Shown: positions 14,656 to 33,266 of the stretch, one piece after another
Position numbering within the stretch: the stretch's first letter is position 1
How the letters are laid out: each line of letters starts with the position of its first letter
Origin: a virus
Lineage: Duplodnaviria; Heunggongvirae; Uroviricota; Caudoviricetes
Direction: 5' to 3' (one strand)
IMG/VR virus record: IMGVR_UViG_3300010355_000975
Length of the DNA stretch: 33,266 nucleotides
Made by a program: the position numbers and the translations under genes
The notes under the pieces: generated by a model
Databases searched by the model: none
What the model was told of the DNA's origin: nothing
Seen by the model: the letters and a program-made list of their open reading frames with translations, nothing else

Positions 14656-14657
14656 TT

Positions 14658-15388: not shown

Positions 15389-15417
15389 AGTAATTCCTTA
15401 TAGCAATAAATTAAAAA

Positions 15418-15972: not shown

Positions 15973-15976
15973 ATGT

Positions 15977-16198
15977 TTATTCTCCTTGTATTAAATAACA
16001 TCCTAAAATTGCATCATAAATCATTGATCTATGAATAAATACATCATTTATATGATTAACAATAGTACTACCTGCAATTGCTTGTAAATTTTTTGCAGTA
16101 TTTACAACCCCAATATTCTCTGGATCATAAATTGATTTCCTCATTACATCTGATAAATTTGATTGTCTTGCTCCTTTTATATACATATTTATATCCAA
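15977..16198 (-). CDS. small fibre-associated protein
   Basis: 73 aa; DVMRKSIYDPENIGVV resembles the DMxKSxYDxxxxGxVD motif of phage fibre proteins. Confidence 0.55.
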   Translation of the reverse strand: MDINMYIKGARQSNLSDVMRKSIYDPENIGVVNTAKNLQAIAGSTIVNHINDVFIHRSMIYDAILGCYLIQGE

Positions 16199-18036: not shown

Positions 18037-18038
18037 AT

Positions 18039-18629
18039 TTATTCCACATCAGTATCCCATTCTGTTGAAATTGTACCACTAATGCCAGAGCGAGCCGGAC
18101 TACCTGCTAAAAACATTCTTTTAATCCATACAAAAATTATTTCATTCGAATCTAAATCATCGTCGTGTGACCCCTGATCGGGTGATACACCTGTTTGTTT
18201 CGTCATACCAGTTACCCAATTAGAAATTCCACTCCCTGTACCATTATGATTAGTGGTATTAACAACGGGCGATGTAATTTCATCCACAACTGTTTGTGCA
18301 GAACCATCAGTTAAAGCGGCTGTTTCAGGCACTTCAATTGCATAAGCTATTTGTTGAGCATTATCAGGATCATACTCTGCACTCCACCAAGCAACTAAAT
18401 TATGCGCTGTTTCTAGTGAAGTATTTTTTAAACAAACACAACGATAATCTGTATACCCGGCAGATGCTTCGGCTGATTTAATGACTCTAAATAAATTGTG
18501 CAATGTATTTGACGTAAATTCAGTAGAACTTCGAAATCCACCTAATGATAAATTTGGGTCTGATTGCGTACCACCATCCGAATCAGCACCAGTTAAATAA
18601 ATTTTGACTTGATCTGCTTGAACAGGCAT
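18039..18629 (-). CDS. conserved uncharacterised virion protein
   Basis: QSDPNLSLGGFRSST...LHNLF...AEASAGYTDYRCVCLKN, a pattern I recognise from phage structural modules; SD AAGGAG. Confidence 0.6.
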   Translation of the reverse strand: MPVQADQVKIYLTGADSDGGTQSDPNLSLGGFRSSTEFTSNTLHNLFRVIKSAEASAGYTDYRCVCLKNTSLETAHNLVAWWSAEYDPDNAQQIAYAIEVPETAALTDGSAQTVVDEITSPVVNTTNHNGTGSGISNWVTGMTKQTGVSPDQGSHDDDLDSNEIIFVWIKRMFLAGSPARSGISGTISTEWDTDVE

Positions 18630-18638
18630 TTTTTCTCC

Positions 18639-19250
18639 TTAATACAAATTTGTATTATCTGTATCATTTGATAAAAAACGTGTTTCACCATAGCATTGTG
18701 TAAATGATAAAAACACTAAATCAATTAATTCCATTCTACTCTTATGTTCAGTTGATTCAATAGTATATTCAGGTGTTCGAATTTTTTGATTTTGAGGATC
18801 GATTAAAATAGCTGTAATAGTAGCTATTAAATTTCCTTCTCTATCTGTTGGATTAAGACCATTAGATGTAACTATTTCATCAGAAGAATTAAGATAAAAT
18901 AATTTACTATACCTACGTCTACTTAATTCTAAAAATGATGCCTTTATCCAATTTTTAATTTGTGTATCAGAATAAATGTTATAATAACTGTATAAAATTA
19001 CAATAGCATCTCCTTTAGTAAGTGATGCAGTAATTATAACAGCATTTAAATCAGAATTATAAGTATAACCTGTGGTTAATAATGAACCATTCTTGTATAC
19101 TTTAATGGCGGACGATGACACATTTTGATGTGATAAATAAAATACATTATCGGAATCATATTCACAAAAGGTTCTTCCATCACTTTGTAAATTATCATCA
19201 ATTTGTATTCGGATTAAATCAATTAATGTATTTATCGTAAATTGTGCCAT
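18639..19250 (-). CDS. head-tail adaptor (connector) with an inserted beta-sandwich
   Basis: First gene after the major capsid gene; LIDLIRIQIDD...YSDTQIKNWI is the typical helical adaptor pattern. Confidence 0.7.
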   Translation of the reverse strand: MAQFTINTLIDLIRIQIDDNLQSDGRTFCEYDSDNVFYLSHQNVSSSAIKVYKNGSLLTTGYTYNSDLNAVIITASLTKGDAIVILYSYYNIYSDTQIKNWIKASFLELSRRRYSKLFYLNSSDEIVTSNGLNPTDREGNLIATITAILIDPQNQKIRTPEYTIESTEHKSRMELIDLVFLSFTQCYGETRFLSNDTDNTNLY

Positions 19251-19271
19251 TTATCATCCTTAATAAATTGG

Positions 19272-19291
19272 GGTGGGGATTACTCCCCACC
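19272..19291 (-). terminator. hairpin after the major capsid gene
   Basis: Minus strand GGTGGGGA-GTAA-TCCCCACC (8 bp, GNRA loop), 7 nt past the stop, followed by CCAATTTATT. Confidence 0.65.
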
Positions 19292-19298
19292 ATAATAA

Positions 19299-20300
19299 TT
19301 AGCTAATTAAATTAACATAAGTATCGGCTTTTTGATAAGCGGCAAAACATTTCGGATTTGTAACAGCCGCACCAAACGAACCAACCGTAATAATCTTGTA
19401 AGCTAACGTAGGAACTGCACCAACCATATGAACATCAAGGTCTTTTGCGAAGATTGCTCTTTCTTTTGCATCTGTATTCACAGGAATTCTTCGACGAGCA
19501 AAAATGGCCGGTCTATTTTTCTGTGAATCGCTAGTTGCTACAAGCAAGGCCCTATCAGTTGGCATAACGGTTTGTGTTCCAGAATGAGTAAACTGATAAT
19601 TCTCGACAGAAATAACTTTGTTAATACCCGCTTTGGCAGGTACAAGTTCACGATTCTTGTCTTCAAAATAATCCATCAATTTAATGTCCCTAGATACATC
19701 AGAACCGGCAATCAAAACTAGATTATTCTTTCCATATTTTGCCAAACTTGCACCCATATCAACTAATACAGGAAAAGTAATTACTGAAGAACCAGAAACA
19801 TTAGTAAATACATTTTTTTCATCTTCGGCGGCGGCAAAATACAAATCAATAAGAGCCTTCTGTTCTAATCTGTTCAATGCTTCATATTGATCAGCGGCCT
19901 TTTCAGCTAAAGAATCATATTTCTGTGTCAACATGCTGTTAATAGTAAGATAATCTTCAGGAGCGGCATATACATCAAGAGCCAATGTAGTAGGAGTCTT
20001 AGGAGTAACTGGAACCTGTGTTACAACACCAGCAGAAATAGTATAAACAGTTTTAGCATTGACATCCTGAACAAAATACTCAACTGTCATACCCGGCATA
20101 ACTGACTTGTATTCAGCAGTATCAGCACCAACATCATTTACAGGAAGTTCGGCATCATAAGGTTCATTCATTAATTCAGTAACCATTTGAGCTGATAAGA
20201 AAGAACTTTTACTACCATCCTGAATAGCGGCGGCTAGTTCAAGTACTTTAGCATCATACTCTTTTTGCACCTGTGCTTCTAGCATAATCTTTTTCATCAA
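19299..20300 (-). CDS. major capsid protein (HK97 fold)
   Basis: 333 aa directly after protease/scaffold; SD AAGGAG (TTG at 20300 or ATG at 20297); followed by a hairpin. Confidence 0.8.
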   Translation of the reverse strand: MMKKIMLEAQVQKEYDAKVLELAAAIQDGSKSSFLSAQMVTELMNEPYDAELPVNDVGADTAEYKSVMPGMTVEYFVQDVNAKTVYTISAGVVTQVPVTPKTPTTLALDVYAAPEDYLTINSMLTQKYDSLAEKAADQYEALNRLEQKALIDLYFAAAEDEKNVFTNVSGSSVITFPVLVDMGASLAKYGKNNLVLIAGSDVSRDIKLMDYFEDKNRELVPAKAGINKVISVENYQFTHSGTQTVMPTDRALLVATSDSQKNRPAIFARRRIPVNTDAKERAIFAKDLDVHMVGAVPTLAYKIITVGSFGAAVTNPKCFAAYQKADTYVNLIS

Positions 20301-20326
20301 TCTTTCTCCTTTTTGTATTAATAAAA

Positions 20327-21175
20327 TTACAATTGTCTTGTTTTCTTCTTTAAAAATTTCTGCTTTGCTTCAATAATTTCAACACCATCATTTGAATCAT
20401 CCGTGTCATGCCCTGCATCAAGAGCAGAATTGGTTGATGCCTGTAATGATGTGGAAGTAGTTCCTTGCTTTAATTCGGCTACTTGTTTCTGCAATCGAGC
20501 AATAGTTACTTTGTTTTCATCCATTAATTGCTCATCTGCTAAATCCTTTACAAAATCACCAAGTTCTGCTCTAATTTCAGCAACCGTCTTAGCATTATCT
20601 TTATAAAAAGATACTTGTGCTGTCAAAATAGCAATCTCTTTTTCTTTTTCAGCAATCACAACATCTTTTTCGGCAATTGTAACTTCTTTTGCTGAAAGTT
20701 GTGCTTTCAATTCTTCATCTGTTTTAGATGCTAAAAGGTCATCTTTTTCTTTAATTTTTGCTTCATATTCTACCTTAACCGCTTCCTGTGCTTCAGTAAC
20801 TTTGGCTTCTAAAGCGGCTTGTGTATAAACTGTGTTGCGAACTGTTTTTGTTTCTTCAACAGGTTTACCTTCAACTTCACGAACATAAGTAGTTGTTTCC
20901 ACAACTTCCATTGTTCCTTTTTCAGTATCTTCAACTACATCATAGACCCGTGTTTCAGTTGATTTACTCTTTTGAATTGTTGCCTGTTCCAATTCTTCTT
21001 TAGCTTTCAATTCAGCGGCTTCTTTATCGGCTTTCAATTTTTCTTCCGCTTCTGCTCTCTTAATCAATTCTGCTTCAAATTGCTCATCCGACCATACTTT
21101 TACTTCATCGCCTTTTTCCGCAATTAAAGAGGCTTTAAATGTTTCTAGCAAAGCCTTTTTTGCTTTCTCATCCAT
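20327..21175 (-). CDS. putative internally initiated scaffold protein (282 aa)
   Basis: In-frame Met224 is preceded by GGAGGAG-ataatcaa-ATG, exactly at the protease/coiled-coil boundary. Confidence 0.6.
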   Translation of the reverse strand: MDEKAKKALLETFKASLIAEKGDEVKVWSDEQFEAELIKRAEAEEKLKADKEAAELKAKEELEQATIQKSKSTETRVYDVVEDTEKGTMEVVETTTYVREVEGKPVEETKTVRNTVYTQAALEAKVTEAQEAVKVEYEAKIKEKDDLLASKTDEELKAQLSAKEVTIAEKDVVIAEKEKEIAILTAQVSFYKDNAKTVAEIRAELGDFVKDLADEQLMDENKVTIARLQKQVAELKQGTTSTSLQASTNSALDAGHDTDDSNDGVEIIEAKQKFLKKKTRQL

Positions 21176-21844
21176 TTGATTATCTCCTCCACTTTGGTTA
21201 CTTTCCAATTTCAATGATTTTAAAGATTTATCTATTAGTTCGCCGAGATAAAGCCATTTTTTAGAAATGTCCTCAACGCTTGCATATAATAGTTGTTTGT
21301 CGTCTTGTTTTAATGCTTCTTCAATAATTCGCATGGCTTGTGAAATAACATGCCCATCTTTATAAGCCGGATTTTTTTTAAATAAAAGCCCAACCCCACA
21401 AAAAGTCGCCTGTTTAACACGCATAACTTTTCCATCAATCTTTAAATCTTTTTTACTAACCTTTAATTCAAAACTAACATGAAGATTTCCTTCTTCTAAT
21501 AATTCAAGAGCTTCTTGATACTCTTCTTCATTATAAACAGTATCAAAACAAATAACTATTTGAATCTCATCCCCAACCATAAAACTATCAAGAATAAACC
21601 CTAATCGTTCATGGTGTCTATGATTACGATTTACTTGAGTTCCTTTAAGATAAGGCACATCTTTTTGAACACTTTTTTCCAAAATTACGCCGTTGGCATT
21701 TGCTGTTACCCCATCCGCTAATGCATACTTCGCTAAAAAGAAACGCAAAGTTGGGTGAGGATATTGAATACCTGCTTTTTGAATAGCATCTTCAATGGCT
21801 TTATCTATTTTTTGAACTTTTGCTTCTAAATAAATTTTTTCCAT
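20327..21844 (-). CDS. prohead protease fused to scaffold
   Basis: N-terminal ANANG...VNRNH (His)...LHVSFEL (Ser)...FCGVGL...NPAY fits HK97/Mu-type maturation proteases; the C-terminal part is Glu/Lys/Ala-rich coiled coil. Confidence 0.75.
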   Translation of the reverse strand: MEKIYLEAKVQKIDKAIEDAIQKAGIQYPHPTLRFFLAKYALADGVTANANGVILEKSVQKDVPYLKGTQVNRNHRHHERLGFILDSFMVGDEIQIVICFDTVYNEEEYQEALELLEEGNLHVSFELKVSKKDLKIDGKVMRVKQATFCGVGLLFKKNPAYKDGHVISQAMRIIEEALKQDDKQLLYASVEDISKKWLYLGELIDKSLKSLKLESNQSGGDNQMDEKAKKALLETFKASLIAEKGDEVKVWSDEQFEAELIKRAEAEEKLKADKEAAELKAKEELEQATIQKSKSTETRVYDVVEDTEKGTMEVVETTTYVREVEGKPVEETKTVRNTVYTQAALEAKVTEAQEAVKVEYEAKIKEKDDLLASKTDEELKAQLSAKEVTIAEKDVVIAEKEKEIAILTAQVSFYKDNAKTVAEIRAELGDFVKDLADEQLMDENKVTIARLQKQVAELKQGTTSTSLQASTNSALDAGHDTDDSNDGVEIIEAKQKFLKKKTRQL

Positions 21845-21846
21845 AT

Positions 21847-23523
21847 TTAATCCTTCTTATTTAAAACCCATTTTCCAGATTTATTCTGGTGAGCAATTTT
21901 TGAAATAGTAGCCCATGCCTTTTTAAAAGCAATTTCTTCACTATCACCATTTTTTAACGCATTATTAACTACTTGCATAAAAATCTTTTGAAGCCTATTT
22001 CCCATATTATTTTTGACTGAATCAGGAAGTTCAGATGTTTTAGAATAAGGGGCCTCTAAATACTCACCTAATTCCTTTTCAATAACTTCACCCAATTCAG
22101 TAATTAAATCATCTTCTAATTCATCCATTGCTTGATTAGCTTTATCAACATCTTCCTGAATTTGAGTAGCATTTTTATAATTGACTACTTCAGGAGTATT
22201 TTTCTTTTTATCATCTGGTGTAGTATTATTAGATGTATCGTTTTGCCCATTATCTAAATTTTGCACAACCCTAGGAAACATTCTTAAATCTAACTTTTCT
22301 TTTCGTTCTCTATCTCGTTCTTTTACTTGACGTTCAAATAATAATCCAGTAGTATTTTCTAATCCACTCTTATCACCAACTAATCCTCTATCATACCATG
22401 AACGAATAAGTGCTTTATCATCTTTAGTTAAAAATGCTTTAATAACTCCGGGTTGTACAATTGCTTTATCGTTCACATTATATTTAGAAGAATTTTTTTC
22501 TTGAATCATTTTAACAACGGTTTGCAATAAATCTTTATAATCAAGAACAGCATCTTCTACTTCTTCTACTAAAACCTTTGGATTTAAAATAGCTTCTTCT
22601 CTTGTCGAAGAAAATCCTTTTAATTCAATCATTCCCATAGCACTTAATAATGCTTGGTCAATTGGTTTAGTAATTTTTTCATCTAAAATTTTTCCAAAAT
22701 CAGGAATCAATTCTTCAATTTTAAAATGGTAAGGATACGCACCAACAACCGCACTACTCTTATCTTTTTTTGATTCATCTTCGTATTTAGTTGCTATGTC
22801 CTTAAAATCTTGTGGTTGTGGTACAATGTTTTTACTTGTTAATTCGGGAGAACCTAATTTTAAAAGCAATTGATATGGAAAAGATGTTACAAGCATTTTA
22901 TTCTGATGCTCAATAACTTTAATTTTTCGCAATGCATGATCCAACGCCCCTCTTTTTACTAAATAAGGCATTGGATATAATTTATATTGTTGATTATATG
23001 GTTTTCGAATTAAGACACTGGTAGTATCAGTATTATCTAATAAATTATTTTCAGAAATTTTTCTAATGTAATACTTTACAGTATCTAACCGATTTTCTTT
23101 ATTCGTCGCATACACATTTGCCCCATCTAAAAACCACATCTTCATGGGCAATAAATAACCATTATATTTTTCCCAAATCATTCGCAAAACAATAAACGAA
23201 CTTGTCCATCGTTCCCGATAATACTGTTCAGAAACAGATCGCAATCCCCAAGGTATATCAATATTAACATCTTTATTAACGTTTTCTTTCCAATAATTTA
23301 ATAACTCAACCATACCTGTTTTTGTAGCATCAAAATCAATTGGAACATTTGCCGCTCTAATCATAAAATCCATAATTGGAGAAATAATAGCTGTTCTATC
23401 ATTATTTAATAAATCATTCACTTGTTTCATTTGCTCATGGTATTTATTTGATACCTTGATATCAACTGAAAAAGTATTTAATTGATTTATTAAATGCGAT
23501 AATAAAAGGTCTGTTTCTGTCAT
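21847..23523 (-). CDS. portal protein with C-terminal ChaB domain
   Basis: 558 aa between TerL and protease (positional portal call); the last ~67 aa (PYSKTSELPDSVK...AFKKAWATI...GKW) match ChaB. Confidence 0.8.
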   Translation of the reverse strand: MTETDLLLSHLINQLNTFSVDIKVSNKYHEQMKQVNDLLNNDRTAIISPIMDFMIRAANVPIDFDATKTGMVELLNYWKENVNKDVNIDIPWGLRSVSEQYYRERWTSSFIVLRMIWEKYNGYLLPMKMWFLDGANVYATNKENRLDTVKYYIRKISENNLLDNTDTTSVLIRKPYNQQYKLYPMPYLVKRGALDHALRKIKVIEHQNKMLVTSFPYQLLLKLGSPELTSKNIVPQPQDFKDIATKYEDESKKDKSSAVVGAYPYHFKIEELIPDFGKILDEKITKPIDQALLSAMGMIELKGFSSTREEAILNPKVLVEEVEDAVLDYKDLLQTVVKMIQEKNSSKYNVNDKAIVQPGVIKAFLTKDDKALIRSWYDRGLVGDKSGLENTTGLLFERQVKERDRERKEKLDLRMFPRVVQNLDNGQNDTSNNTTPDDKKKNTPEVVNYKNATQIQEDVDKANQAMDELEDDLITELGEVIEKELGEYLEAPYSKTSELPDSVKNNMGNRLQKIFMQVVNNALKNGDSEEIAFKKAWATISKIAHQNKSGKWVLNKKD

Positions 23524-25178
23524 TTTTTACACTCTGTAGATGTTAATCCCCAACATACTTTTATATTAAAATTCTGTTTTAAAATTTTCTGTTCATTGAA
23601 AAATCTGCAAATAGCCCACGTTTGCCATGCCTGAATCAAGTGATTTTCGCCCTTTGACCCATATTGAATTTTACCTTTATTACTAGATGCCAAAACGTTA
23701 GTAAATTGGTTTTCAAATTTTGGATCATTCGGAATTTCAACATCACTACTATATAACATTCTTTCTAATTCTTTAAAAGACCAATCTTCACAATTATGTT
23801 TTTTAAAAATTGGATCACCGTTGTTGTCCGTTTTTACAACATCATTACCATATCCATCTTTTTCAATTTCAAACCCAACTTCAATATTTTCATTAAACCG
23901 CACTTTTAATAAATGTTCCTCTGGAATTCCCATTTTAAATAAACGATCAATCATTGCTCCTGAATCTGATGTTGAATCTAAAGCTATAAATGCACTGCCT
24001 AACTTATCATATAAATATTTAATTATTTCTGGCTGTTCTTCAGGAGTCAATCGAAGCAATGAAATATTATAAACATATTTATATTTTTTTCCATCATAAA
24101 AAACTATAATTAATTCAGTTGGAGCCGCACCAAATCCCAAATCACCACATATAAAACATTGTTCTGCACCAATCATTCTTTCGACAATTAAAATGTTTTC
24201 ATAATTCGTAAAATTGTCTTTTGATACTTCTAAAAATTTAACTCGGGAATGATTTTTAAAACTAGCTTCTTTTAACCGCTTCATATCAAAAAAACCAAAT
24301 GCACCCTCAATTGTTTTTGCCTCAACATTTAATAAATATTGTGGTGTAGTTTTACCACCATATTCTTCTGCTTTTTCTTCTTCAATTTTATTTGACCAAT
24401 CTGCCCGAACATATTGTGGCAATTGCCAAATCCAATTTTTTAAAGCCTTATTTTGTAAAATCTTTCCCAATGGTGAACCAACACATAAATCTGGTATTCC
24501 AGACGGGCGTTCAATGTGCCCATAAGACATACCAGAATCAACGCTTTTTAATTGTCCTTCAATCGTGGCATAACTATATTCTTCATAAAACCTTATCTCA
24601 TAATGTTTTGAATGAAATTGCACACCCGGATTATCACCATCAACCTGTTCATTTACAGCATATCCTTTGCACCCATGTTCGGTTGTAATTGTTAAAGGGT
24701 CACGCTTTGCACAATTTGTTCTACCATCTCTAGGATGAAAAATTTGTAAAAATTTATGACTTTCAACATATGAGGCAATAGGGTCACAAACTTTTTTTAA
24801 TTTTTCAGCAGAACAAGAAGCAACACATATTTCCTTAAAACCAAAAATAATTGCTAATAAAGAATCAATAATAAGCCACAGCGACTTTCCTGTATTACGA
24901 CTACCAATCATGTAACAATCGCCAGCACCTTTTTGAATTCTAAAATTATCTTCTTTTTCGAGATTAGGATCATCCGCATACATATATGAATAATTCTGAA
25001 TTGCAAATTGATAATCTCTAATAGTAATTGTTGGAGAATTTTCATTCCATGTTTGAGGAGCATTTAAATTTGCAGGAATCAAACATTCTGTCATAGCTGT
25101 TGGATCATAAAAAAATTCTAAAAATTCTATCTCCTCTTCTGTTAAAGGATTACGATCAACCATTTTTATTTTTTCCAA
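23520..25178 (-). CDS. terL: terminase large subunit
   Basis: RDYQ adenine-binding motif, Walker A SRNTGKS, Walker B-like IRFYEE, coupling motif SGIP, RNase H-like nuclease acids CGDLG and ALDST; upstream of the portal. Confidence 0.9.
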   Translation of the reverse strand: MEKIKMVDRNPLTEEEIEFLEFFYDPTAMTECLIPANLNAPQTWNENSPTITIRDYQFAIQNYSYMYADDPNLEKEDNFRIQKGAGDCYMIGSRNTGKSLWLIIDSLLAIIFGFKEICVASCSAEKLKKVCDPIASYVESHKFLQIFHPRDGRTNCAKRDPLTITTEHGCKGYAVNEQVDGDNPGVQFHSKHYEIRFYEEYSYATIEGQLKSVDSGMSYGHIERPSGIPDLCVGSPLGKILQNKALKNWIWQLPQYVRADWSNKIEEEKAEEYGGKTTPQYLLNVEAKTIEGAFGFFDMKRLKEASFKNHSRVKFLEVSKDNFTNYENILIVERMIGAEQCFICGDLGFGAAPTELIIVFYDGKKYKYVYNISLLRLTPEEQPEIIKYLYDKLGSAFIALDSTSDSGAMIDRLFKMGIPEEHLLKVRFNENIEVGFEIEKDGYGNDVVKTDNNGDPIFKKHNCEDWSFKELERMLYSSDVEIPNDPKFENQFTNVLASSNKGKIQYGSKGENHLIQAWQTWAICRFFNEQKILKQNFNIKVCWGLTSTECKK

Positions 25179-25425
25179 TCAGCCCATAACCATATTGTAA
25201 ATTTGTTTTATTTGTCCATGCTTCTAAAAAATTTGAACTACCAAAAGCATATCTAGCATTATCGGAATTATTTAAAATTCTTAAAATAACCCACTCACCA
25301 TTTGATCGAACATACAAATAATAAGTATAGTTGTCAATTGTTTCTTTTTCAGCAATTGTTTCTAGATCAATTGTTTCATAAAAAATTCTTGAAAGAGGAT
25401 CAAATTTAACAATTGTTTTTATCAT
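25156..25425 (-). CDS. hypothetical protein between TerS candidate and TerL
   Basis: 89 aa; GEWVILR...RYAFG...AWTNKTNLQY; overlaps both neighbours. Confidence 0.65.
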   Translation of the reverse strand: MIKTIVKFDPLSRIFYETIDLETIAEKETIDNYTYYLYVRSNGEWVILRILNNSDNARYAFGSSNFLEAWTNKTNLQYGYGLIGKNKNG

Positions 25426-26234
25426 TTTGGTTGATTGTAATAAGTTGAATGCCGTAAATTTGGATTTGAATTTATATATTCAATAATTCTTTGTTCTTCT
25501 ACTCCATCAATTTCAATAATTTTATTTTCGTTCTCAATAACCCATTCAATATATTTTTCAGATGTTCTAAGAATGTCTGCCGCTAATTTTTTTGTTATTG
25601 TACCATTCTTAACTGCATCAATTACAACATAGTTGAAAAGAAATCGTCCGCTGAAACTGGGATGTACTAAACAATCAAAATCTTTTACTCTGCGCCTAAA
25701 TAATCTTGGTTGAACATCAAAATGACCACAGTTATTACAAAGTAGGGGTACATAAGCAGTAAATTCATTTCTATTAAATGGAATATAAACAGCAAACTTT
25801 TTCTTAAGCATCTCTAAAGCTGATAAATCATCTTTCTTTTCTGCTTTAGTAATTCCTAATTTTTCTTGAAGATTATAAATTTGTGCTTGTGTGTCATGTA
25901 GTGCTTTTACTTCTTTTTCTGGAATAAAACTATTACTTTTATTATTTGCTACTTCGTCTAAAGCATCTTTTAAATGGATTAACAAAATTTCTTCATAAAC
26001 CAAATCGCCAACAATTTTATATTCAACCAATGTTTCAAATGGATAATTATTTATGTAATGATCAAAGATTTCTTCGGCTTCTTTTTTATCGGATGCTTTT
26101 TTAAATCTTGACTTTATATCAACACATTTTTTAAAAACAATTTTCTTTGCTTCACGTTCTAATTCGACTAAAGAACGATTTTTATTTTGCTTCATATTTT
26201 GCAAAATTTTTACTTGTTTTTCTATATCAGTCAT
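25422..26234 (-). CDS. probable terminase small subunit
   Basis: 270 aa, first gene of the packaging operon; helical core, CNNC, and C-terminal HTH-like TITKKLAADILRTSEKYIEW. Positional inference. Confidence 0.55.
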   Translation of the reverse strand: MTDIEKQVKILQNMKQNKNRSLVELEREAKKIVFKKCVDIKSRFKKASDKKEAEEIFDHYINNYPFETLVEYKIVGDLVYEEILLIHLKDALDEVANNKSNSFIPEKEVKALHDTQAQIYNLQEKLGITKAEKKDDLSALEMLKKKFAVYIPFNRNEFTAYVPLLCNNCGHFDVQPRLFRRRVKDFDCLVHPSFSGRFLFNYVVIDAVKNGTITKKLAADILRTSEKYIEWVIENENKIIEIDGVEEQRIIEYINSNPNLRHSTYYNQPK

Positions 26235-26246
26235 AAAATACCTTAC

Positions 26247-26284
26247 AAAAACAAAAAATCCATAGTATAATTAAATACTATGGA
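26247..26284 (-). terminator. intrinsic terminator immediately upstream of the TerS candidate
   Basis: Minus strand TCCATAGTAT-ttaatt-ATACTATGGA (perfect 10 bp) followed by TTTTTTGTTTTT; the ATG is 12 nt past the U-tract. Confidence 0.7.
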
Positions 26285-26346
26285 CACACTTTTAGCCTTG
26301 TTTATAGCTTAAATAATTAAACTTATTATTTATTTTATTCATTTGG

Positions 26347-26601
26347 GGTTAGGCGACAAGCGCCTAACCATTTATCGCTAACGCCTTATTGATAAGACGA
26401 GCGAGTGGCGAAATGAAGAATTTCACCCGTTTTCAGACCGAAAACTGAATTGACGGTTTTATTATTGGTGGATCGTTGCCACTTCGGTTTTTTGGTCTAA
26501 TCCTACTACCAAGTCTAGCTTGGGGTCAGATCGTTTAACCAAAAATAACAATGTAGGCAATCCTTTACTAGTCCGTATAAGACCAATTGCCTAGGATTAG
26601 A
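26347..26601 (-). ncRNA. candidate structured non-coding RNA / leader of unknown class
   Basis: GC-enriched island in an AT-rich spacer with at least 9 helices, including a 10-bp long-range pair (26496-26505/26592-26601), an 8-bp stem (26554-26561/26586-26593) and a 9-bp hairpin (26347-26369). Four stems contain G.U pairs on the minus strand that would be C.A mismatches on the plus strand. Confidence 0.65.
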
Positions 26602-26680
26602 ATATTTATTCATAACTACTTATATTTCAAACACTTAACTAATTTCAACACAAAATATCAATTCTCTAGTGTACACTTTA

Positions 26681-26710
26681 ATTATAACATATTGGATAGC
26701 CGTTTGTCAA
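26681..26710 (-). promoter_or_regulatory. consensus sigma70/sigmaA promoter
   Basis: TTGACA (26710-26705), 18-nt spacer ending in TGT (extended -10), then TATAAT (26686-26681); predicted start near 26674. Confidence 0.8.
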
Positions 26711-26847
26711 GGGGCAACCATAACTACTTCATAATCAACAACATATATCAAAAATTCTTTTTTAACCCTGCATTGTTAAAATATAAAAATGTTATAAGTC
26801 CTTTATTGTCAACAAGTACATTTTTTATTTCGTTGCAGAATTAAATT

Positions 26848-27191
26848 TTATATCAAAAAATAATTTATTTGTTGCATTACAGCCGATAATTCATTGGTAA
26901 AATTTCGCAAATCTGTATGATTTAAAACAAATAACATATCTTTTTCACAAACATATCCTTCATATACCTTCTTAAATTGTAATGCTAATGTACATAAAAT
27001 AATCTCGCATACTTCGTGATAAAGAATAGATAATTTTTTGTCTAAATTTAATAATTTATTTATGTGAATTATGGCTGTATCAAAATAAAACATCCAAAAT
27101 CATTATGTTTATCATAAACAATTTTCCATTCAATTCCCATAATAATTAATTTATCTGGCAAATTTTTTCTTTTAGCTAATAAATTATTCAT
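26848..27191 (-). pseudogene. frameshifted HE-motif (metalloprotease-like) phage gene
   Basis: SD GGAG + ATG at 27191 gives MNNLLAKRKNLPDKLIIMGIEWKIVYDKHNDFGC; one extra T in TGTTTTAT would join it to track ORF 26848..27093 (FYFDTAIIHI...ILYHEVCE). Confidence 0.6.
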
Positions 27192-27264
27192 TTATAATCT
27201 CCAATTATTAATGCTTGTCAACTTATACTATATTTTGGCTATAACCCTATATAACTTTATATAA

Positions 27265-27477
27265 CTAAATTTTTTCTAATTCATTACAAGAGCGAACATC
27301 TTTTATTCCACCCGGTAAACAAATTGTGTATGATTCATCATGGAAAAATTTATAATCTGATCTTATTCCTAAACCATTAACATATAATAATCCAATAACT
27401 TGAGCATTTTGTTTAGTAACTAAATCAAAGACATATTCGCCTATATCAAAAGAAAAATCAAAGGTGTATTTAGCCAT
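27265..27477 (-). CDS. hypothetical protein (70 aa, MAKYTFDFSFDIGEYV...)
   Basis: Track ORF 27265..27534; SD GGAG precedes the ATG at 27477, which overlaps the ligase stop region. Confidence 0.7.
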   Translation of the reverse strand: MAKYTFDFSFDIGEYVFDLVTKQNAQVIGLLYVNGLGIRSDYKFFHDESYTICLPGGIKDVRSCNELEKI

Positions 27478-28372
27478 TTTCTTCTCCAAAAGATTTTTTT
27501 GCCAAATATTCTTTATACCATTCAGATAAACCACGTGTTGCTGTTTTCAAAACTTCTCTCCCAAATTCATTCCACAAAAAATCCTTTATATTTTCTTTTT
27601 CTTCTTCGGTTATATCCTCATTAACTCGTTTCATTAACAACCCGATGTCTTTGGGTGAATTATCCAACACACCGTTATCCCTTAGATAAAAAATTGCTTT
27701 TAACCAACGTGCTTCAGTGCAAAATCCTTCTTTATACACTTCCCATTTTCCTTTACCAGTATTTTCTCTACTCCAATTCTTTTGATGTACTTCTTTAAAT
27801 TCTTCAGAAACATATTTAGCACACAACAAAGGAATAATTCTATTATCTAATAAAATCTCTTTATTATAATTTTTAACAACAAATCCTTCAATTTTGGCTT
27901 TTCCTAAAACACTCTCTCGTTGCAACATTTCTTTTAATTGTTCAAAATTATTTATTTTACCTTTAAAAAGAATCGGTACTGTTTCCAAATTTAATAAATC
28001 GGCATATTTATAATAATCAAAAATAAATTTACCATTTTCATAACATGCCCCAAAAAGAATTATATTATTTTTTGGGACTCTACCATAGCAAAGAACATTA
28101 TGTTTTTCTTTTTGTAAATATTCCCCATAAAACATTATTCCATTTGGTAAACTCGATTCAATAGATTTTATATAATCAATGCCTTTAGAAAATAATTTAT
28201 CTGGACAATCAACTTGTTGAATAATACCTTTACTTCGAACAATTAAGGTATTATTTATTTTACCAAACCCAATTTGCGATCCATCAATTTTTTCCGTGAT
28301 TTCAACATCTGAATCAAAAATGTTTTGTACCCATCGCTGACCAACTGTAAAAATTTTTGGAAAAGCATTCAT
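27470..28372 (-). CDS. ATP-dependent RNA ligase (Rnl2-like)
   Basis: Nucleotidyltransferase motifs: I TEKIDGSQ, III FYGEYL, IIIa LFGA, IV IEGFVVK, V AKYVSEEFKE. Confidence 0.85.
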   Translation of the reverse strand: MNAFPKIFTVGQRWVQNIFDSDVEITEKIDGSQIGFGKINNTLIVRSKGIIQQVDCPDKLFSKGIDYIKSIESSLPNGIMFYGEYLQKEKHNVLCYGRVPKNNIILFGACYENGKFIFDYYKYADLLNLETVPILFKGKINNFEQLKEMLQRESVLGKAKIEGFVVKNYNKEILLDNRIIPLLCAKYVSEEFKEVHQKNWSRENTGKGKWEVYKEGFCTEARWLKAIFYLRDNGVLDNSPKDIGLLMKRVNEDITEEEKENIKDFLWNEFGREVLKTATRGLSEWYKEYLAKKSFGEENG

Positions 28373-28376
28373 TTCT

Positions 28377-28442
28377 TCACCTCGTATAATAATAATTTTT
28401 ATCCCGGCTTCTTGAATGGCTAAGGCACAAATAATCGCATAT
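28377..28442 (-). pseudogene. 3' remnant of a deaminase-like gene
   Basis: One frame reads ICALAIQEAGIKIII and the adjacent frame gives ICD...YYTR*; together this matches the CxxCxxAIxxAGIKxIxYT end of cytidine/dCMP deaminase-like proteins. Confidence 0.55.
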
Positions 28443-28478
28443 AATATTTAAAATTATAATTATATCAAAATTTATATT

Positions 28479-29105
28479 TTATTTAAATTTTTTAATATAG
28501 TTAATCATTTTTCTCAATACAAAAATATCTTCATTCATCAATCCTAAAACAGTGTTACATCTTGTACATAATAAACTTCTAACTTTATTATTTTTATGAT
28601 CGTGATCAACGGATAACATTTTAATTTTTTGAGTTTTAAAATTTTTTCTAGTTTCTTTTTGATTACAAATAAAACACTTATTATTTTGATTTTTTAACAT
28701 TTCTTTATAAGTTTTTAAATTAATATTATATAAATGTTTTAATTCATTATTCTTTAATTTTTCTTTCGTTCGTCCACCACGCCATAAATGATGTTCCTTT
28801 CCTTTTTTAAAACGCTGACAACCACAAGATTTGAGATTTCCACTTTTTAAATTATATGATGGGCCCTTTATATAATTTCCACAATCACATTTACAAACCC
28901 ATGCTATTCTATTATTTTCTTGTTGAAAAGCGCCGATAATAGTTAAATGACCAAATCTGCATCCAATTAAATTTGTTATTGGTTTACACATTTGTCCTGT
29001 TTTATATCGATATAACATCATACATGACTTACATAAACCAGAACCATATGCGCCAGATGTTATTGAAATGGGTTTATTACAATTTTTACAATAATATTTT
29101 TTCAT
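28479..29105 (-). CDS. free-standing homing endonuclease, endonuclease VII-type HNH
   Basis: CFIC...LSVDHDHKNNKVRSLLCTRCNTVLG (EndoVII), plus LIGCRFGHLTII...WVCKCDCGN...SCGC and GKEHHLWRGG accessory motifs typical of phage homing endonucleases. Confidence 0.85.
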   Translation of the reverse strand: MKKYYCKNCNKPISITSGAYGSGLCKSCMMLYRYKTGQMCKPITNLIGCRFGHLTIIGAFQQENNRIAWVCKCDCGNYIKGPSYNLKSGNLKSCGCQRFKKGKEHHLWRGGRTKEKLKNNELKHLYNINLKTYKEMLKNQNNKCFICNQKETRKNFKTQKIKMLSVDHDHKNNKVRSLLCTRCNTVLGLMNEDIFVLRKMINYIKKFK

Positions 29106-29209
29106 ATTTTATTTTTCCGATCTACAATAATTGCACAAATATTTTGCTTTTTATTATTTATTACTGTAGATAATTCAATTGCTTTATTTAAAATTTTTTT
29201 ATTCATCAT
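29102..29209 (-). pseudogene. 5' remnant of a deaminase-like gene (35 aa)
   Basis: MMNKKILNKAIELSTVINNKKQNICAIIVDRKNKI* resembles the N-terminal helix and GAVIVD strand of deaminase-like proteins; its TGA overlaps the endonuclease ATG (ATGA). Confidence 0.55.
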
Positions 29210-29363
29210 AAATAGTCCACTCATATGTTAAAACATCATCTTTTGTTAATTGTAATGGTCTAACAAATCTCCAGGTATTACCTTCTATAATTATTTTCTT
29301 TCGTAATCTTTTTCCATTTAAATAAATTTTTAAATTATTCCAAAAATCAATCCTCGGAGTCAT
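29199..29363 (-). CDS. small hypothetical protein (54 aa)
   Basis: Track ORF 29199..29411; SD GAGGAG precedes the ATG at 29363 (MTPRIDFWN...). Confidence 0.6.
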   Translation of the reverse strand: MTPRIDFWNNLKIYLNGKRLRKKIIIEGNTWRFVRPLQLTKDDVLTYEWTIYDE

Positions 29364-29647
29364 AAAATTTTCTCCTCTCTTAACTGATAAATTAATCTTC
29401 CTCTTGCACAATCATTACATAATACATTATAAGCAGTTAAATAATTAAGTAAAACTTTTTCTCTTAATTCAATGGAGTAACAACCTAAAATATCCCTACA
29501 ATTAATTAATGTTCGATTATATTCATCTCTAAGAATTAAATTTTGTCTTTTTTCAATCAGTGTATAATATTCTCCACTTTTATCCAGATAAGTTTCGCCA
29601 ACATATTTTCCGGGCATTATTTCTTTTACATTAATATATTTGTCCAT
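29360..29647 (-). CDS. hypothetical protein
   Basis: 95-aa ORF, tightly packed, one CxxC. Confidence 0.65.
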   Translation of the reverse strand: MDKYINVKEIMPGKYVGETYLDKSGEYYTLIEKRQNLILRDEYNRTLINCRDILGCYSIELREKVLLNYLTAYNVLCNDCARGRLIYQLREEKIL

Positions 29648-29648
29648 T

Positions 29649-30200
29649 TCAGTCCATCCAATTTTGATAGTTAGATTTTAAAAGTTTCCAAAAATATTCT
29701 TTTTCATGCTCATATTGTAATTTATCTTCTTTATCTGCTCTCCTAAATGCTTTCTTATTTACAAAATCTCTTGAAATGTCTAATACCCAATTTGGTTCAT
29801 AAATTTCATAATACATTTTTCTATTAGTATCATAGTTATCTTCGTGTAATCGTTTAGCTAATTCGCAACAAATTCTTAATTTTCTCATCCTAGTATTATT
29901 TGAATTACTATTCCATTGAAGATGGCCATATTCTTCGCAATACTTAATAAATTTTTTTAACTTTAAATAAACATATAAATAATACCCAAACTCAAATTCC
30001 CACTCATAATGTTTTCTAAATTTCCAACCCCAATAAAAAAATCTACATAATGACTCATATGGCACAATAATTAAATCAGTATATAAATCATATAGATCAT
30101 TTAATAAATCCCACCATTTTTCTTGAATAGTGGATTTAGGATGCATTAAGTGTCTAATTAATTTACTACCAAATAAAAGTTTTCGAATTTTTCTAATCAT
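29649..30200 (-). CDS. hypothetical protein (aromatic-rich)
   Basis: 183-aa ORF overlapping the MTase end. Confidence 0.75.
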   Translation of the reverse strand: MIRKIRKLLFGSKLIRHLMHPKSTIQEKWWDLLNDLYDLYTDLIIVPYESLCRFFYWGWKFRKHYEWEFEFGYYLYVYLKLKKFIKYCEEYGHLQWNSNSNNTRMRKLRICCELAKRLHEDNYDTNRKMYYEIYEPNWVLDISRDFVNKKAFRRADKEDKLQYEHEKEYFWKLLKSNYQNWMD

Positions 30201-30966
30201 TTTTTATTCTTTCTTCAGCGATTTTACAATATTTTTGGTCTTGTTCAATTAAAATAAAATTTCGATTTAAATTTTTACAAGCTACTCCTGTTGTTCCACT
30301 TCCAGCACAATTGTCTAAAACTAAATCGCCTTCATTGGTGTAGGTTTTGATTAGGTATTCAAAAAGGGCTACTGGTTTTTGGGTGGGGTGAAGTTTTCCT
30401 CGTTGCTCCCTAGAAAAATAAATAAGTTGTTTGGGAAGCAGTTTATCTGGTTCGTAATTTTTACCATGATAATTTTGTGTTTCGTTCATCTTGGTTTCTT
30501 TCCAAGATTCGCCCATCACTTCTTTGACGTTTTTAGTTATTTTTGATGGGTTTCGGCTCAAGTGTCTTTTAGAAATTCCCCGAGGATTGATTTCTTTTTG
30601 TGGATTATATGTTGGTTGTTTATTTAAAAACACACTGATAATTTCTAAAATCTTCAAAGGCATTTTATTTCCAAATAAAAAATTTGCGGCTTTATCTTTT
30701 TGCCAATACCAATCATAGTTAAATTGTTCTAAATTACTTAATCTTAGTTTACTCGAAAACGGTTCATTACCGCAAAGAAGAACGGCTCCACTGTCTTTAA
30801 TAATCCTCTTATATTGTTCCCAAAGAGGTTCAAAAGGAATAATAGTATCCCACTTACAAGCTGTTGTACCATACGGCAAATCACACAGAATCATATCAAT
30901 AGACTTATCAGGAATAGACTTCATCAACTCTAAGCAATCGCCCAATCTTAAATCTATCATAGCCAC
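30193..30966 (-). CDS. orphan DNA N6-adenine/N4-cytosine methyltransferase (beta class)
   Basis: Catalytic motif DLPYG, then HPTQKPVAL, then SAM-binding LDNCAGSGTT; no restriction gene is adjacent in the window. Confidence 0.92.
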   Translation of the reverse strand: MAMIDLRLGDCLELMKSIPDKSIDMILCDLPYGTTACKWDTIIPFEPLWEQYKRIIKDSGAVLLCGNEPFSSKLRLSNLEQFNYDWYWQKDKAANFLFGNKMPLKILEIISVFLNKQPTYNPQKEINPRGISKRHLSRNPSKITKNVKEVMGESWKETKMNETQNYHGKNYEPDKLLPKQLIYFSREQRGKLHPTQKPVALFEYLIKTYTNEGDLVLDNCAGSGTTGVACKNLNRNFILIEQDQKYCKIAEERIKND

Positions 30967-30979
30967 ATCCCTATTAGTT

Positions 30980-31171
30980 TTAGCATTGGTTAGTCCTCCT
31001 TGTATCTACCAACTCCCAAATTTTATTTAATACCTTACTTTCATATCCTAATCTATCCGCCAAAAGTTTATCTTCTTTATCTTTGCAAGGTTGACAAATA
31101 CACGACCACTTATATCCTGCCGCACCAACTGAACCATTCGTAAGTTGACTACATAAGATACAATTTTTCAT
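30980..31171 (-). CDS. small Zn-finger-like hypothetical protein
   Basis: MKNCILC...CICQPC; the ATG at 31171 lies in an ATGA overlap. Confidence 0.6.
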   Translation of the reverse strand: MKNCILCSQLTNGSVGAAGYKWSCICQPCKDKEDKLLADRLGYESKVLNKIWELVDTRRTNQC

Positions 31172-31356
31172 TGTTGCACCTTCTTCCAATAAAGAAACAT
31201 ATGCTCAAATTTATCTCTGGAAAATGTTGAACACCAACTCATCCCGTCAGGATTATCCCGTCTAACTTTTTCCTTGTGTTCTTCGCAGGAGTATTTACAA
31301 TCATCCTCACACCAAGAACAATCATCTCTACCATATGCCTTACTTGCTGGATTTCT
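31168..31356 (-). pseudogene. start-less Cys-rich reading frame (3' part of a disrupted gene)
   Basis: RNPASKAYGRDDCSWCEDDCKYSCEEH...WCSTF...HMFLYWKKVQQ* ends in an ATGA overlap with the next gene but has no plausible start at its 5' end. Confidence 0.45.
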
Positions 31357-31571
31357 TCAATAACATTCATAATCTCCCGTAAAGCATAATCTATTGACCT
31401 TTGAATAGAACCTTTAGCTGACAAATCGTTAATGGTATCTTTCCACACAGAAGAACAAGCAGAAGTTATTATCATTCTTATTCTGTCCTCAATAGTGCAA
31501 AAATGATTAGTTGCACTTTCATTATGGTATCCTTCCCATTCTTTACCGCATTTTGGACATATTTTAGTCAT
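31239..31571 (-). CDS. hypothetical protein with N-terminal CPKC
   Basis: 110-aa ORF, ATGA-coupled start; the C-terminal third may be read-through into foreign sequence. Confidence 0.55.
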   Translation of the reverse strand: MTKICPKCGKEWEGYHNESATNHFCTIEDRIRMIITSACSSVWKDTINDLSAKGSIQRSIDYALREIMNVIEEIQQVRHMVEMIVLGVRMIVNTPAKNTRKKLDGIILTG

Positions 31572-31723
31572 TTCTCCCCCCTCTCGTTCTTTGCCTTAAT
31601 CTCTCTTATTTTATCTTTCAATATCTGGTAGAATTTATCATACTTAATATCCCAATACTCTTCGTCGTCCTCTATACTCCTAATCCATTGCATTAAATCA
31701 CGCCATCGGGATGAGTTGTTCAT
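31568..31723 (-). CDS. small hypothetical protein (51 aa, MNNSSRWRDLMQWIRS...)
   Basis: Not in the track; ATGA overlaps at both ends. Confidence 0.65.
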   Translation of the reverse strand: MNNSSRWRDLMQWIRSIEDDEEYWDIKYDKFYQILKDKIREIKAKNERGEK

Positions 31724-31956
31724 CTTTTAGTAATCCTATATTTTGACAGTATGAGTTGCACAAGTTCTTTTATTCGCAATTCTCCCATAATATATCCAAC
31801 CGAGGTGTTTTGTGTGTGCTCTTTTATTGTATTAAGTAATTCATCAAATGAAACCTCTGACTCGTAAAAATCATCTTCGGTGAATGATTGCGGATTAACT
31901 GTATGCCCATTACTATATTTTACTAATCCGTCCTGCTTTCCTTGTTCTGGTATCAT
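31720..31956 (-). CDS. hypothetical protein (78 aa, MIPEQGKQDG...)
   Basis: Track ORF 31720..32001; SD AAGGAG precedes the ATG at 31956. Confidence 0.6.
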   Translation of the reverse strand: MIPEQGKQDGLVKYSNGHTVNPQSFTEDDFYESEVSFDELLNTIKEHTQNTSVGYIMGELRIKELVQLILSKYRITKR

Positions 31957-32032
31957 TTGAACACCACTCCTTTCGCCTGTAACATTACATCCCACGCCCA
32001 ATTACAAACCACAAAACCTATCATCACTCCGA

Positions 32033-32122
32033 TTAGCATACCCAATCCAATACAACAAGAGTTTTTAGCGTGTTGATTGATACGCCGATATATTTACTTG
32101 CTTCTGTTACTTTTAGAATCAT
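32033..32122 (-). mobile_element. truncated IS607 TnpA-like / Xis-like HTH remnant
   Basis: MILKVTEASKYIGVSINTLKTL, then unrelated VVLDWVC*; the first 22 aa are a MerR/Xis-type HTH start like the IS607 resolvase N-terminus. Confidence 0.55.
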
Positions 32123-32264
32123 TGAATAATCCCAACTTATGAATCCTGCACCAGAGTTTATGCCATGCTTTGTTGTAGCGTTCTTTGCTTGCTGTAAATC
32201 CAATTTCTACTGAAAAATCTGTGATGTAATAATTTAAACTTTTTTCTTTTTGTGATTTAGCCAC
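32094..32264 (-). CDS. small hypothetical protein (56 aa, GTG start)
   Basis: Not in the track; GGGAG precedes GTG; MAKSQKEKSLNYYITDFSVEIGF... Confidence 0.5.
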   Translation of the reverse strand: MAKSQKEKSLNYYITDFSVEIGFTASKERYNKAWHKLWCRIHKLGLFNDSKSNRSK

Positions 32265-32451
32265 AGCATTTTCTCCCTTCTTTAAGAATTTTATCAGCTT
32301 CTTTAGCTGACTGGTCTATTGTTCTGGACACTTCATCGTTATTCCTTTCCAAAAGTTTCATAAGAACGCCAAACGCTTTAAATATTTCATCTTTAAGCGG
32401 GTCGTCGTCGTTAACGCTAAACTTTAACTGGATTGTCGTTGGCTTCTTCAT
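32257..32451 (-). CDS. small hypothetical protein (MKKPTTIQ...)
   Basis: Track ORF 32257..32469; ATGA-coupled start at 32451. Confidence 0.6.
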   Translation of the reverse strand: MKKPTTIQLKFSVNDDDPLKDEIFKAFGVLMKLLERNNDEVSRTIDQSAKEADKILKEGRKCCG

Positions 32452-32894
32452 TCTTCCACCAAAGCACAAGCGATATGTTCAGAAAGAAGTTCAAGTTCTT
32501 TTGTGCCAGATTTCCTATCATTTTCATCAGAAGGAGTTAAAACATCAATTAAATCAGCCCCACCCTCATCTGTTTGTATGTATTGACAGCGATAGCTGAG
32601 TAATGCGTCTTTTATTTTTTCATCCACTAAATTTTCTCTTTCATACGTTAATTCAAAAATATCTGGTTTACATGGATAAAATTCGCCCTTTATGCCTTTG
32701 ATAATCCAATCGCCAATTTCTGCTTTCATCTCACCTTCAAGAGTGGTTATTGTAAGAAAGTGAACTTTAGAACCCTGTTGCATACAAGCACCGTATTTCA
32801 TACCCATAGATTCTAATTCTTGCATGGTAGATACTTTTCCATCCCAAAAAATTGCCTCAACAACTACTGGTTTCTTCCGGACTGTTAATATCAT
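32448..32894 (-). CDS. conserved phage protein (KKPVVVEA...GDWIIKG...YPCKPDIF, PGDYG-like) with C-terminal extension
   Basis: RKKPVVVEA, TTLEGEMKAEIGDWIIKGIKGEFYPCKPDIFELTYE signature; ATGA-coupled start at 32894. Confidence 0.75.
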   Translation of the reverse strand: MILTVRKKPVVVEAIFWDGKVSTMQELESMGMKYGACMQQGSKVHFLTITTLEGEMKAEIGDWIIKGIKGEFYPCKPDIFELTYERENLVDEKIKDALLSYRCQYIQTDEGGADLIDVLTPSDENDRKSGTKELELLSEHIACALVEE

Positions 32895-33058
32895 TTTATC
32901 AACCCGCACCTTTCTATTGGTATTTTGCTTTCACCCTGCTCAATTACCCACAAGGCACATTCTTTTTGTTGGCATTTTATTCTTATTAAATCTTCTTCTG
33001 GTTTACGATACTCCGATGTAAGTAACACCGCTTTACTCATTATTGGACATATTTTCAT
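32891..33058 (-). CDS. small Cys-patterned protein (55 aa)
   Basis: Not in the track; MKICPIMS...CQQKECALW...RCGLIK*, ATGA overlaps at both ends. Confidence 0.7.
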   Translation of the reverse strand: MKICPIMSKAVLLTSEYRKPEEDLIRIKCQQKECALWVIEQGESKIPIERCGLIK

Positions 33059-33225
33059 ATCTTCTCCTTCCTCATCTTCTGGATTTCGTCGAGTAAAAAC
33101 TTCTCGTTCTCATCCATCAATTCCTGCAACTCTGTGATGGTCATTTCCTCATCCAAAGGCTCGAAAAAGTAGACTCTTTCGCCTTCGGTTTCAAAATAGG
33201 ACTTCGTAACTTTAGTGATTTTCAT
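33055..33225 (-). CDS. small acidic hypothetical protein (56 aa)
   Basis: Not in the track; SD GAGG + MKITKVTKSYFETEGERVYFFEPLDEE... Confidence 0.7.
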   Translation of the reverse strand: MKITKVTKSYFETEGERVYFFEPLDEEMTITELQELMDENEKFLLDEIQKMRKEKI

Positions 33226-33266
33226 GGCGTTTTTACCTCAAAATACCCATTGTTTTTAATCGTTTC

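Follow-up and report, generated by a model that had tools for sequence, protein, structure and literature searches.

A small permuted pseudoknot in a modular RNA cassette at the head of a phage late operon

The window, by which we mean the whole 33,266-nt stretch of DNA that was analysed, is part of an AT-rich tailed-phage genome whose long genes are all encoded on the minus strand. The flagged stretch (26347-26601) sits in a gap with small accessory genes (RNA ligase, endonuclease VII and methylase) on one side and the late operon on the other. The original prediction described this stretch as richer in GC than its surroundings, and its GC content was indeed 42%, against 22% and 24% in the flanks; the stem arms named in that prediction were all found in place. 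Comparison with shuffled sequences gave folding z-scores of -4.7 for the minus strand and -3.0 for the plus strand, and the G.U cells of the family alignment agreed with the earlier suggestion that G.U pairs point to the minus strand. The genes on the late side are:

23520 to 25178, minus strand: terminase large subunit gene (terL), 552 aa
25422 to 26234, minus strand: first late gene, 270 aa, with a CxxC motif; probable terminase small subunit (weak evidence)

The terL ORF contains a Walker A-like motif and matched Terminase_6N clusters with an ESM Atlas feature score of 0.98-0.99. The 270-aa protein had no sequence match in Pfam, PHROG or PDB. Foldseek returned several terS rows with probabilities of 0.87-0.99 but E values of 0.13-1.6, none of them a significant fold match, and the gene is probably, if weakly, terS-like. 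The element had been placed directly upstream of the terminase genes; a 16-codon ORF and a terminator lie in between, and the weakly terS-like gene that follows is up to 7 genes away from terL in relatives. A homologue of the 270-aa protein with 93% identity is filed under a Patescibacteria MAG, so that a Patescibacteria host is hinted at, though not demonstrated.

The 255 nt originally taken as the element correspond to the middle of a minus-strand unit of ~425 nt (about 26674-26250). The proposal that it has its own promoter and terminator was borne out (12/12 sigma-70 site at 26710-26681; terminator stem at 26285-26258):

26681 to 26710, minus strand: extended sigma-70 promoter (TTGACA, 18 nt, TG-TATAAT), 12/12, inferred start site ~26674
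26613 to 26637: 25-bp imperfect palindrome (TAAGT..TTG.....AA..ACTTA type), candidate operator
26250 to 26285, minus strand: intrinsic terminator, 11-bp stem (26285-26258) and U-run, 23 nt before the first late gene

This promoter is the sole 12/12 site in 14000-33266. No strong promoter match was found in the 23-nt gap between the terminator and the first late gene, so the late genes most likely need read-through. Additional copies of the palindrome at 26721-26745 and 26795-26819 mean that the promoter is flanked on both sides, as it is in most relatives. The 25-bp palindromes were ~8-fold enriched by promoters (39 matches in 10.8 kb versus 69 in 158 kb elsewhere) and are candidate repressor or activator sites.

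About 30 distinct loci, designated below by L numbers, were collected via homologues of the 270-aa gene; protein searches of IMG/VR and GTDB and a blastn search against GenBank phages returned no relatives. Nearly all loci keep the promoter, which recurs in ~25 relatives, and mostly a terminator right before the first late gene, and the RNA between the two is a mosaic across ~25 relatives. This RNA is a modular cassette of swappable parts, not a single 255-nt fold, and it heads the late operon of a group of uncultured tailed phages. Its conserved parts are a pseudoknot and a module made of a CCA hairpin, an AUG and a short ORF. The 5' multibranch domain of the original prediction is optional: it folds in the window taken alone but is not conserved in close relatives, being absent in L001 and L004, complete in L005 and separated into halves in L293 and L294. 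The first late gene of L001 is 93% identical to that of the window, yet L001 lacks the domain, and the GGTTA/TGACC stem assigned to it is not preserved in L005 or L294. The optional parts and a short hairpin are:

26592 to 26601, minus strand: 5' arm of an optional closing helix (partner 26505-26496), partial in L005 and L009, absent in L001, L004, L293 and L294
26556 to 26591, minus strand: optional module A, a stem and inner hairpin with a UUAUACG loop and an AGUA bulge, also in L005, L009 and L293
26496 to 26545, minus strand: optional module B, an irregular hairpin with a CUAGA loop (26509-26523), also in L005 and L294
26416 to 26428, minus strand: short hairpin with a T-loop-like heptaloop, UGAAAUU (UGCGAUU in L001)
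26375 to 26404, minus strand: optional bulged hairpin, also in L001, L294 and L028

The inner stem of module A shows a compensatory swap. Where the window has the T-loop-like hairpin, the L006 cassette holds a real tRNA with the T-loop UGCGAUU. This tRNA (L006:5137-5207) has a CAT anticodon and was detected by Rfam but missed by ARAGORN.

Several further features of these loci were recorded. The L009 cassette (L009:3378-4243) extends to 866 nt with many hairpins, and includes module A and the CCA-ORF module, no knot and no Rfam match. L039, L040, L041 and L042 form a long-branch clade in which the promoter is kept with another set of hairpins, and neither the knot nor the CCA hairpin is present. 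At the promoter of L018 (2320-2715) and L033 (1889-2380), upstream of the knot, related ORFs of 131 and 163 aa are inserted; they have no Pfam match and are possibly mobile endonuclease genes. Genes of the tRNA-repair type lie just upstream of the cassette (window 27470-28372; L001:2956-4831), with an RNA ligase gene in the window, L006, L009 and L294; in L001 they encode a CCA/poly(A) polymerase and an RlaP nucleotidyltransferase. The portal-position gene (window 21847-23523) ends in a ChaB domain in the window and relatives alike, and inteins with LAGLIDADG domains occur in many terL homologues of the phage group (L006:8487-11348; L292:221-3103; L295:1875-4769).

The second domain of the original prediction, AGTGGC/GCCACT enclosing CCGT/ACGG, did not hold among relatives, since its 3' arms are lost in L001 and L294 while the 5' arm stays. 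Instead, GTGG pairs locally and ACCGA pairs with the loop of TTCAG/CTGAA, giving a conserved pseudoknot that the prediction had missed along with the CCA-AUG-ORF module:

26432 to 26492, minus strand: permuted pseudoknot, including an A-run (26492-26489)
26488 to 26484, minus strand: 5' strand of P1, ACCGA, pairing with 26441-26437
26482 to 26468, minus strand: P2 hairpin
26467 to 26450, minus strand: A-rich linker
26449 to 26432, minus strand: P3 hairpin with an 8-nt loop (26444-26437), whose last five bases pair with the P1 strand

The knot proper, in which a 5-nt strand and an 8-nt hairpin loop pair, comprises 57 nt (26488-26432). Covariation was scored on a structure-blind alignment of 20 sequences, in which the P1 helix was paired in 100/100 cells with 23 two-sided changes. 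The whole knot structure was 88% paired versus 64% when shuffled and at most 43% when slid, beating all shuffles and slides; the shuffle P values overstate significance because the sequences are related. The knot descriptor gave 0 matches in 5.3 Mb of shuffled sequence. A model built without the P1 helix found 26 loci at E <4e-7, including the 20 training sequences, and also recovered the held-out loci L293, which has an additional compensated P1 pair, and L294, which has one P1 mismatch. Looking for covariation among relatives had been proposed with the original prediction, and both P1 and the CCA hairpin covary strongly; with no Rfam match and with its own promoter and terminator, the claim of a new phage structured RNA was upheld.

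Two positions of the loop also vary in step with the helix. Loop base 2 tracks pair 1 (U with A-U in 19 sequences, C with G-C in 2, the latter counting as one or two events, since their cores are similar although the protein tree separates them), and loop base 3 tracks pair 2 (U with C-G in 13/13, A with G-C in 6/7). This pattern suggests that the covarying bases form major-groove triples. The conserved unpaired bases of the knot are U, U and the A-run only, with no conserved unpaired G or C. Conservation as DNA palindromes (a pac or cos site, or an origin) rather than as RNA, which the original prediction had allowed for, would be in keeping with the palindromic 25-mers beside the promoter and with packaging sites often lying near terS. 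The pseudoknot with its triple-like covariation, the G.U pairs on the transcribed strand and stems that lack conserved primary sequence make this extremely improbable; for 26347-26601, the RNA-type covariation largely rules it out.

A compact form of the knot was searched for in IMG/VR with the two knot halves in reversed order. The pattern returned 88 stretches and 67 matches with a stem of at least 4 bp, 54 of which also pair at the free position, whereas a mismatched control gave 10, 2 and 1; most conserved letters are fixed by the pattern, so these searches show enrichment and free-position covariation only. Judged from sequence, the window knot and a ~30-nt H-type pseudoknot that is enriched in IMG/VR are circular permutations of each other. 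The compensated variant was present in the compact form, with the predicted loop A in 8/9 well-formed copies, and the variant for the C.G-C triple gave 35 matches (chance level) with one well-formed copy, bearing C. The one sequence variant tried against 185,579 cell genomes gave 27 matches, 2 of them well-formed, which is chance level. None of the compact-form sites was covered by an Rfam match.

Ten of the 39 distinct compact copies, with close relatives among the ten, stop 3-6 nt short of a tRNA, and many others come after a stop codon or before a gene start; arrays containing drum, ROOL and GOLLD RNAs also have the compact knot. The order of the window is kept in six more distinct copies from unrelated viruses. 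In these, P3 doubles as the terminator and a stop codon often comes immediately before the copy; the 5th pair is complementary in 6/6 of these terminator-embedded copies. Some matches had seemed to lie in RNA-virus 5' UTRs and were dropped, as L208 has several phage-like ORFs and L154-type matches are inside a long ORF.

Other arrangements were seen around compact copies. In L145 (99-124 and 440-465), L124, L147, L148, L153, L163, L167, L170, L177 and L187 a compact knot with an outer closing stem is repeated before the ribosome-binding sites of successive genes. L120, L166, L171, L175, L184 and L188 share a longer folded non-coding sequence, in the ~150 nt upstream of the match, that has the compact knot at its end; it had no Rfam match in L171 and L184. 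At L146:3682-3704 a compact knot with a U-run behind it closely follows a gene that looks like the major coat gene of an inovirus. Near a knot-like match, L158 has (1661-1731 and 2430-2484) an HDV-like ribozyme that scores above the gathering threshold and a weak match to twister-P1.

These distributions bear on the four roles offered with the original prediction. A packaging RNA like the phi29 pRNA would suit a location ahead of packaging genes and an own promoter; we consider it very improbable, because the cassette is modular and missing in some relatives, the phage has terL and a probable terS, and the same knot occurs elsewhere far from packaging genes, beside tRNAs and in terminators. 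Membership of the pRNA family was rejected as well, as there is no conserved three-way junction with two complementary loops and the multibranch domain is absent or split. A transposon guide scaffold was likewise unsupported: the cassette is modular, no IscB or TnpB was found among the annotated neighbours checked, and an IS200/IS605 omega-RNA, reRNA or HEARO scaffold was rejected for lack of an Rfam match (HEARO/RAGATH-18). The other two roles, a put-like antiterminator and a protein sponge, stay as minority rivals.

As a put-like element, the knot would bind RNA polymerase in cis and let it pass the terminator into the late operon. The order of promoter, structured leader, terminator and late genes is what such an element calls for, and putL likewise has two stems and a short triplex within ~70 nt (PMC9378689). 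However, the conserved sequence and topology of putL are missing, the knot lies anywhere between 60 and 454 nt from the start site among loci, and it is dispensable: 5 relatives that share the promoter and the late gene do without it (L009, L039-L042). In other viruses, moreover, the P3 stem of some permuted copies is itself a terminator at the end of an operon facing a convergent gene. We therefore regard antitermination by the knot as rather unlikely.

The sponge has more in its favour. A trans-acting small stable RNA could serve as a decoy for a host protein (a nuclease, an RNA chaperone or a tRNA-sensing defence protein), the knot providing the binding site and the terminator ending an abundant transcript. 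The very strong promoter with its terminator, the swappable cargo modules with a real tRNA among them, the sharing of arrays with drum, ROOL and GOLLD RNAs, the RNA ligase and CCA-adding enzyme genes nearby and the enrichment in viruses, set against the chance level of the pattern tried in cell genomes, all agree with such a role. The constant gap of 3-6 nt between knot and tRNA 5' end and the position directly after stop codons favour action in cis, and no partner protein gene is conserved beside the knot, so that a decoy seems unlikely.

Natural circular permutation, small size, proximity to tRNAs and twister- and HDV-like matches nearby (L158) are typical of small ribozymes, and in preQ1-I and SAM-II a ligand is bound by an H-type knot with A-rich strands. 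The knot might then cleave itself, as a new minimal ribozyme, or bind a ligand as an aptamer. We find this improbable: the few conserved unpaired bases are accounted for by the triples, the HDV/theta topology is not that of the knot, and the tRNA leaders and operon ends at which it occurs share no metabolic gene. A riboswitch of the preQ1-I or SAM-II type was rejected: there was no Rfam match, and the knot is found in late leaders, tRNA leaders and operon ends rather than before one class of metabolic genes.

Downstream of the knot, the second conserved part of the cassette joins a tRNA-like end to a reading frame:

26344 to 26369, minus strand: conserved 9-bp hairpin with G-C as its first pair, followed at once by CCA (26346-26344); tRNA acceptor-end look-alike
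26292 to 26342, minus strand: short ORF of 16 codons (11-24 in relatives), stop 6 nt before the terminator stem

The CCA hairpin was 97% paired with 46 two-sided changes, and a U is found at position -1 in 20/23 loci. The gap between the knot and this hairpin is 1-7 nt in 7 relatives; in the window two hairpins (62 nt) intervene, so the window knot would not be the exact RNA 3' end. The AUG of the short ORF is invariant, 0-1 nt after CCA, with no Shine-Dalgarno motif before it. Over 10 codons, 18/19 loci have no stop in this frame, versus 6 and 4 for the other frames, with a shuffle P of ~2e-7 that is inflated by kinship. The peptide sequence is poorly conserved and the ORFs have no ssrA-type tag at the end. 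Among loci the ORF ends either 6-15 nt ahead of the terminator stem or 15 nt into it. As read from the sequence, a conserved short ORF that ends next to or within an intrinsic terminator before an operon has the layout of a leader-peptide attenuator. In bacteria with uncoupled transcription, stop codons near terminators are commonplace, which counts against an attenuation reading.

We tentatively favour, at somewhat less than an even chance of being right, an end-protecting knot in a tRNA-operon-like cassette, combined with a short ORF that tunes terminator read-through. A promoter-to-terminator cassette resembling a miniature phage tRNA operon would head the late operon. Host RNase P would cut the CCA hairpin at its 5' side as it does a real tRNA, such as the one held by the L006 cassette. 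The tight knot would then act as an end-cap that stops exonucleases and stabilises the released upstream RNA, and the compact form could do the same job before tRNAs (3-6 nt), after stop codons and inside terminators. The SD-less ORF would be translated at a low level only, or after processing at CCA, and a ribosome at its stop would cover the 5' arm of the terminator and so set transcription into the packaging and virion genes. An end-cap with tRNA-type release is favoured because the order of a knot and then an RNase P substrate recurs (in the compact form and in seven relatives) and because bacterial RNase P cleaves model hairpins with RCCA (PMC12710915). The helix, the CCA and U(-1) are conserved, but the free purine discriminator is mostly missing, the first G pairing with the C that precedes CCA, so the CCA hairpin is a putative RNase P substrate. 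The nuclease-blocking role is a candidate suggested by genomic context, and the papers searched gave no phage example of an xrRNA-type end cap.

A stronger version of the same scheme, which we think unlikely, is a processing-gated switch. Here, host tRNA-processing nucleases would cut the tRNA-end mimic and expose a leaderless AUG, translation from which would override the terminator and turn on the packaging and virion genes, with the released RNA capped by a new minimal, triple-stabilised, permuted nuclease-blocking knot used by many phages.

Whatever its role, a ~30-nt uncatalogued viral pseudoknot with covarying triple-like contacts and two natural circular permutations is small enough for direct structure work, and is a potential RNA-end stabiliser. 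The module of CCA hairpin, AUG, short ORF and terminator would, if the proposed scheme is true, tie host tRNA processing to phage late-gene control. Should the knot do no more than cap an RNA end passively and the ORF be just another small gene, a new RNA family would still have been found.

Comparison with known RNAs placed the knot in none of the families tested (Rfam, tRNA/tmRNA, theta, put, pRNA and omega-RNA), and it is an uncatalogued RNA. The original prediction had recognised no known RNA motif, and this was confirmed with Rfam 15 at gathering scores and with ARAGORN, both negative for the window, where neither a cloverleaf nor a tRNA-like domain (TLD) with a tag ORF was detected; in 20 relatives, Rfam found a single tRNA only. 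Literature searches by concept and by an exact 12-mer returned no description of the knot, which may still be listed among the 10,006 viral candidate RNAs of PMC10690425.

Theta (minimal HDV-like) ribozymes are nested double pseudoknots with a catalytic C, found at tRNA 3' ends (PMC10879173). Like them, the knot is small, pseudoknotted and tRNA-associated in phages, with an 8-nt loop that starts U-Y and contains CG; unlike them, it is a single knot located 5' of tRNAs, and the CG of its loop is Watson-Crick paired. Membership was rejected, as nothing is conserved 3' of P3 and loop bases 4-8 pair with the upstream strand; the knot alignment has no conserved unpaired C to match the HDV/theta catalytic C in J4/2. 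The preQ1-I aptamer (RF00522), tmRNA pk1 and the TYMV acceptor-arm pseudoknot are small H-type pseudoknots close to the knot, whose compact form shares their geometry (4-6 bp stem, UUU loop, 5-bp second stem and A-rich third loop). It differs from all three in having no Rfam match, other conserved letters, no ligand-pocket base between the stems, two natural circular permutations, a location outside tmRNA and no ACCA after it.

The HK022 put RNA suppresses termination by binding to the beta' zinc domain. It has two long stems with a conserved 5' AGACG duplex and an A9-G35 pair (PMC9378689); the knot differs in consensus and topology and was rejected as a member. The CCA hairpin resembles the tRNA acceptor microhelix, the G-1:C73 end of tRNA-His and the model RNase P hairpins (PMC12710915) in that a short helix starts from G and is followed by CCA, with U at -1. 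In contrast to these, it has 9 bp and a 3-6 nt loop, usually lacks a discriminator, and is followed by an AUG 0-1 nt after CCA.

For the cassette as a whole, the nearest counterparts are the phage tRNA-cluster cargo RNAs (drum RF02958, ROOL RF03087 and GOLLD RF02032), to which T4 species 1 and 2 can be added. These are likewise structured, promoter-driven non-coding modules with tRNAs or CCA ends, whereas the cassette matches no model, is far smaller, and is fused to a short ORF and a terminator before the late operon. The late leader of lambda (pR'-6S RNA-tR') and HK022 putR offer the same strong promoter, short terminated leader and read-through to late genes; the window differs from them in its modular cassette, CCA hairpin and SD-less ORF, with no Q-like gene identified and no put consensus (PMC9378689). 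By analogy, the cassette may work like a phage tRNA-cluster cargo RNA joined to a late leader of the lambda pR'-tR' type.
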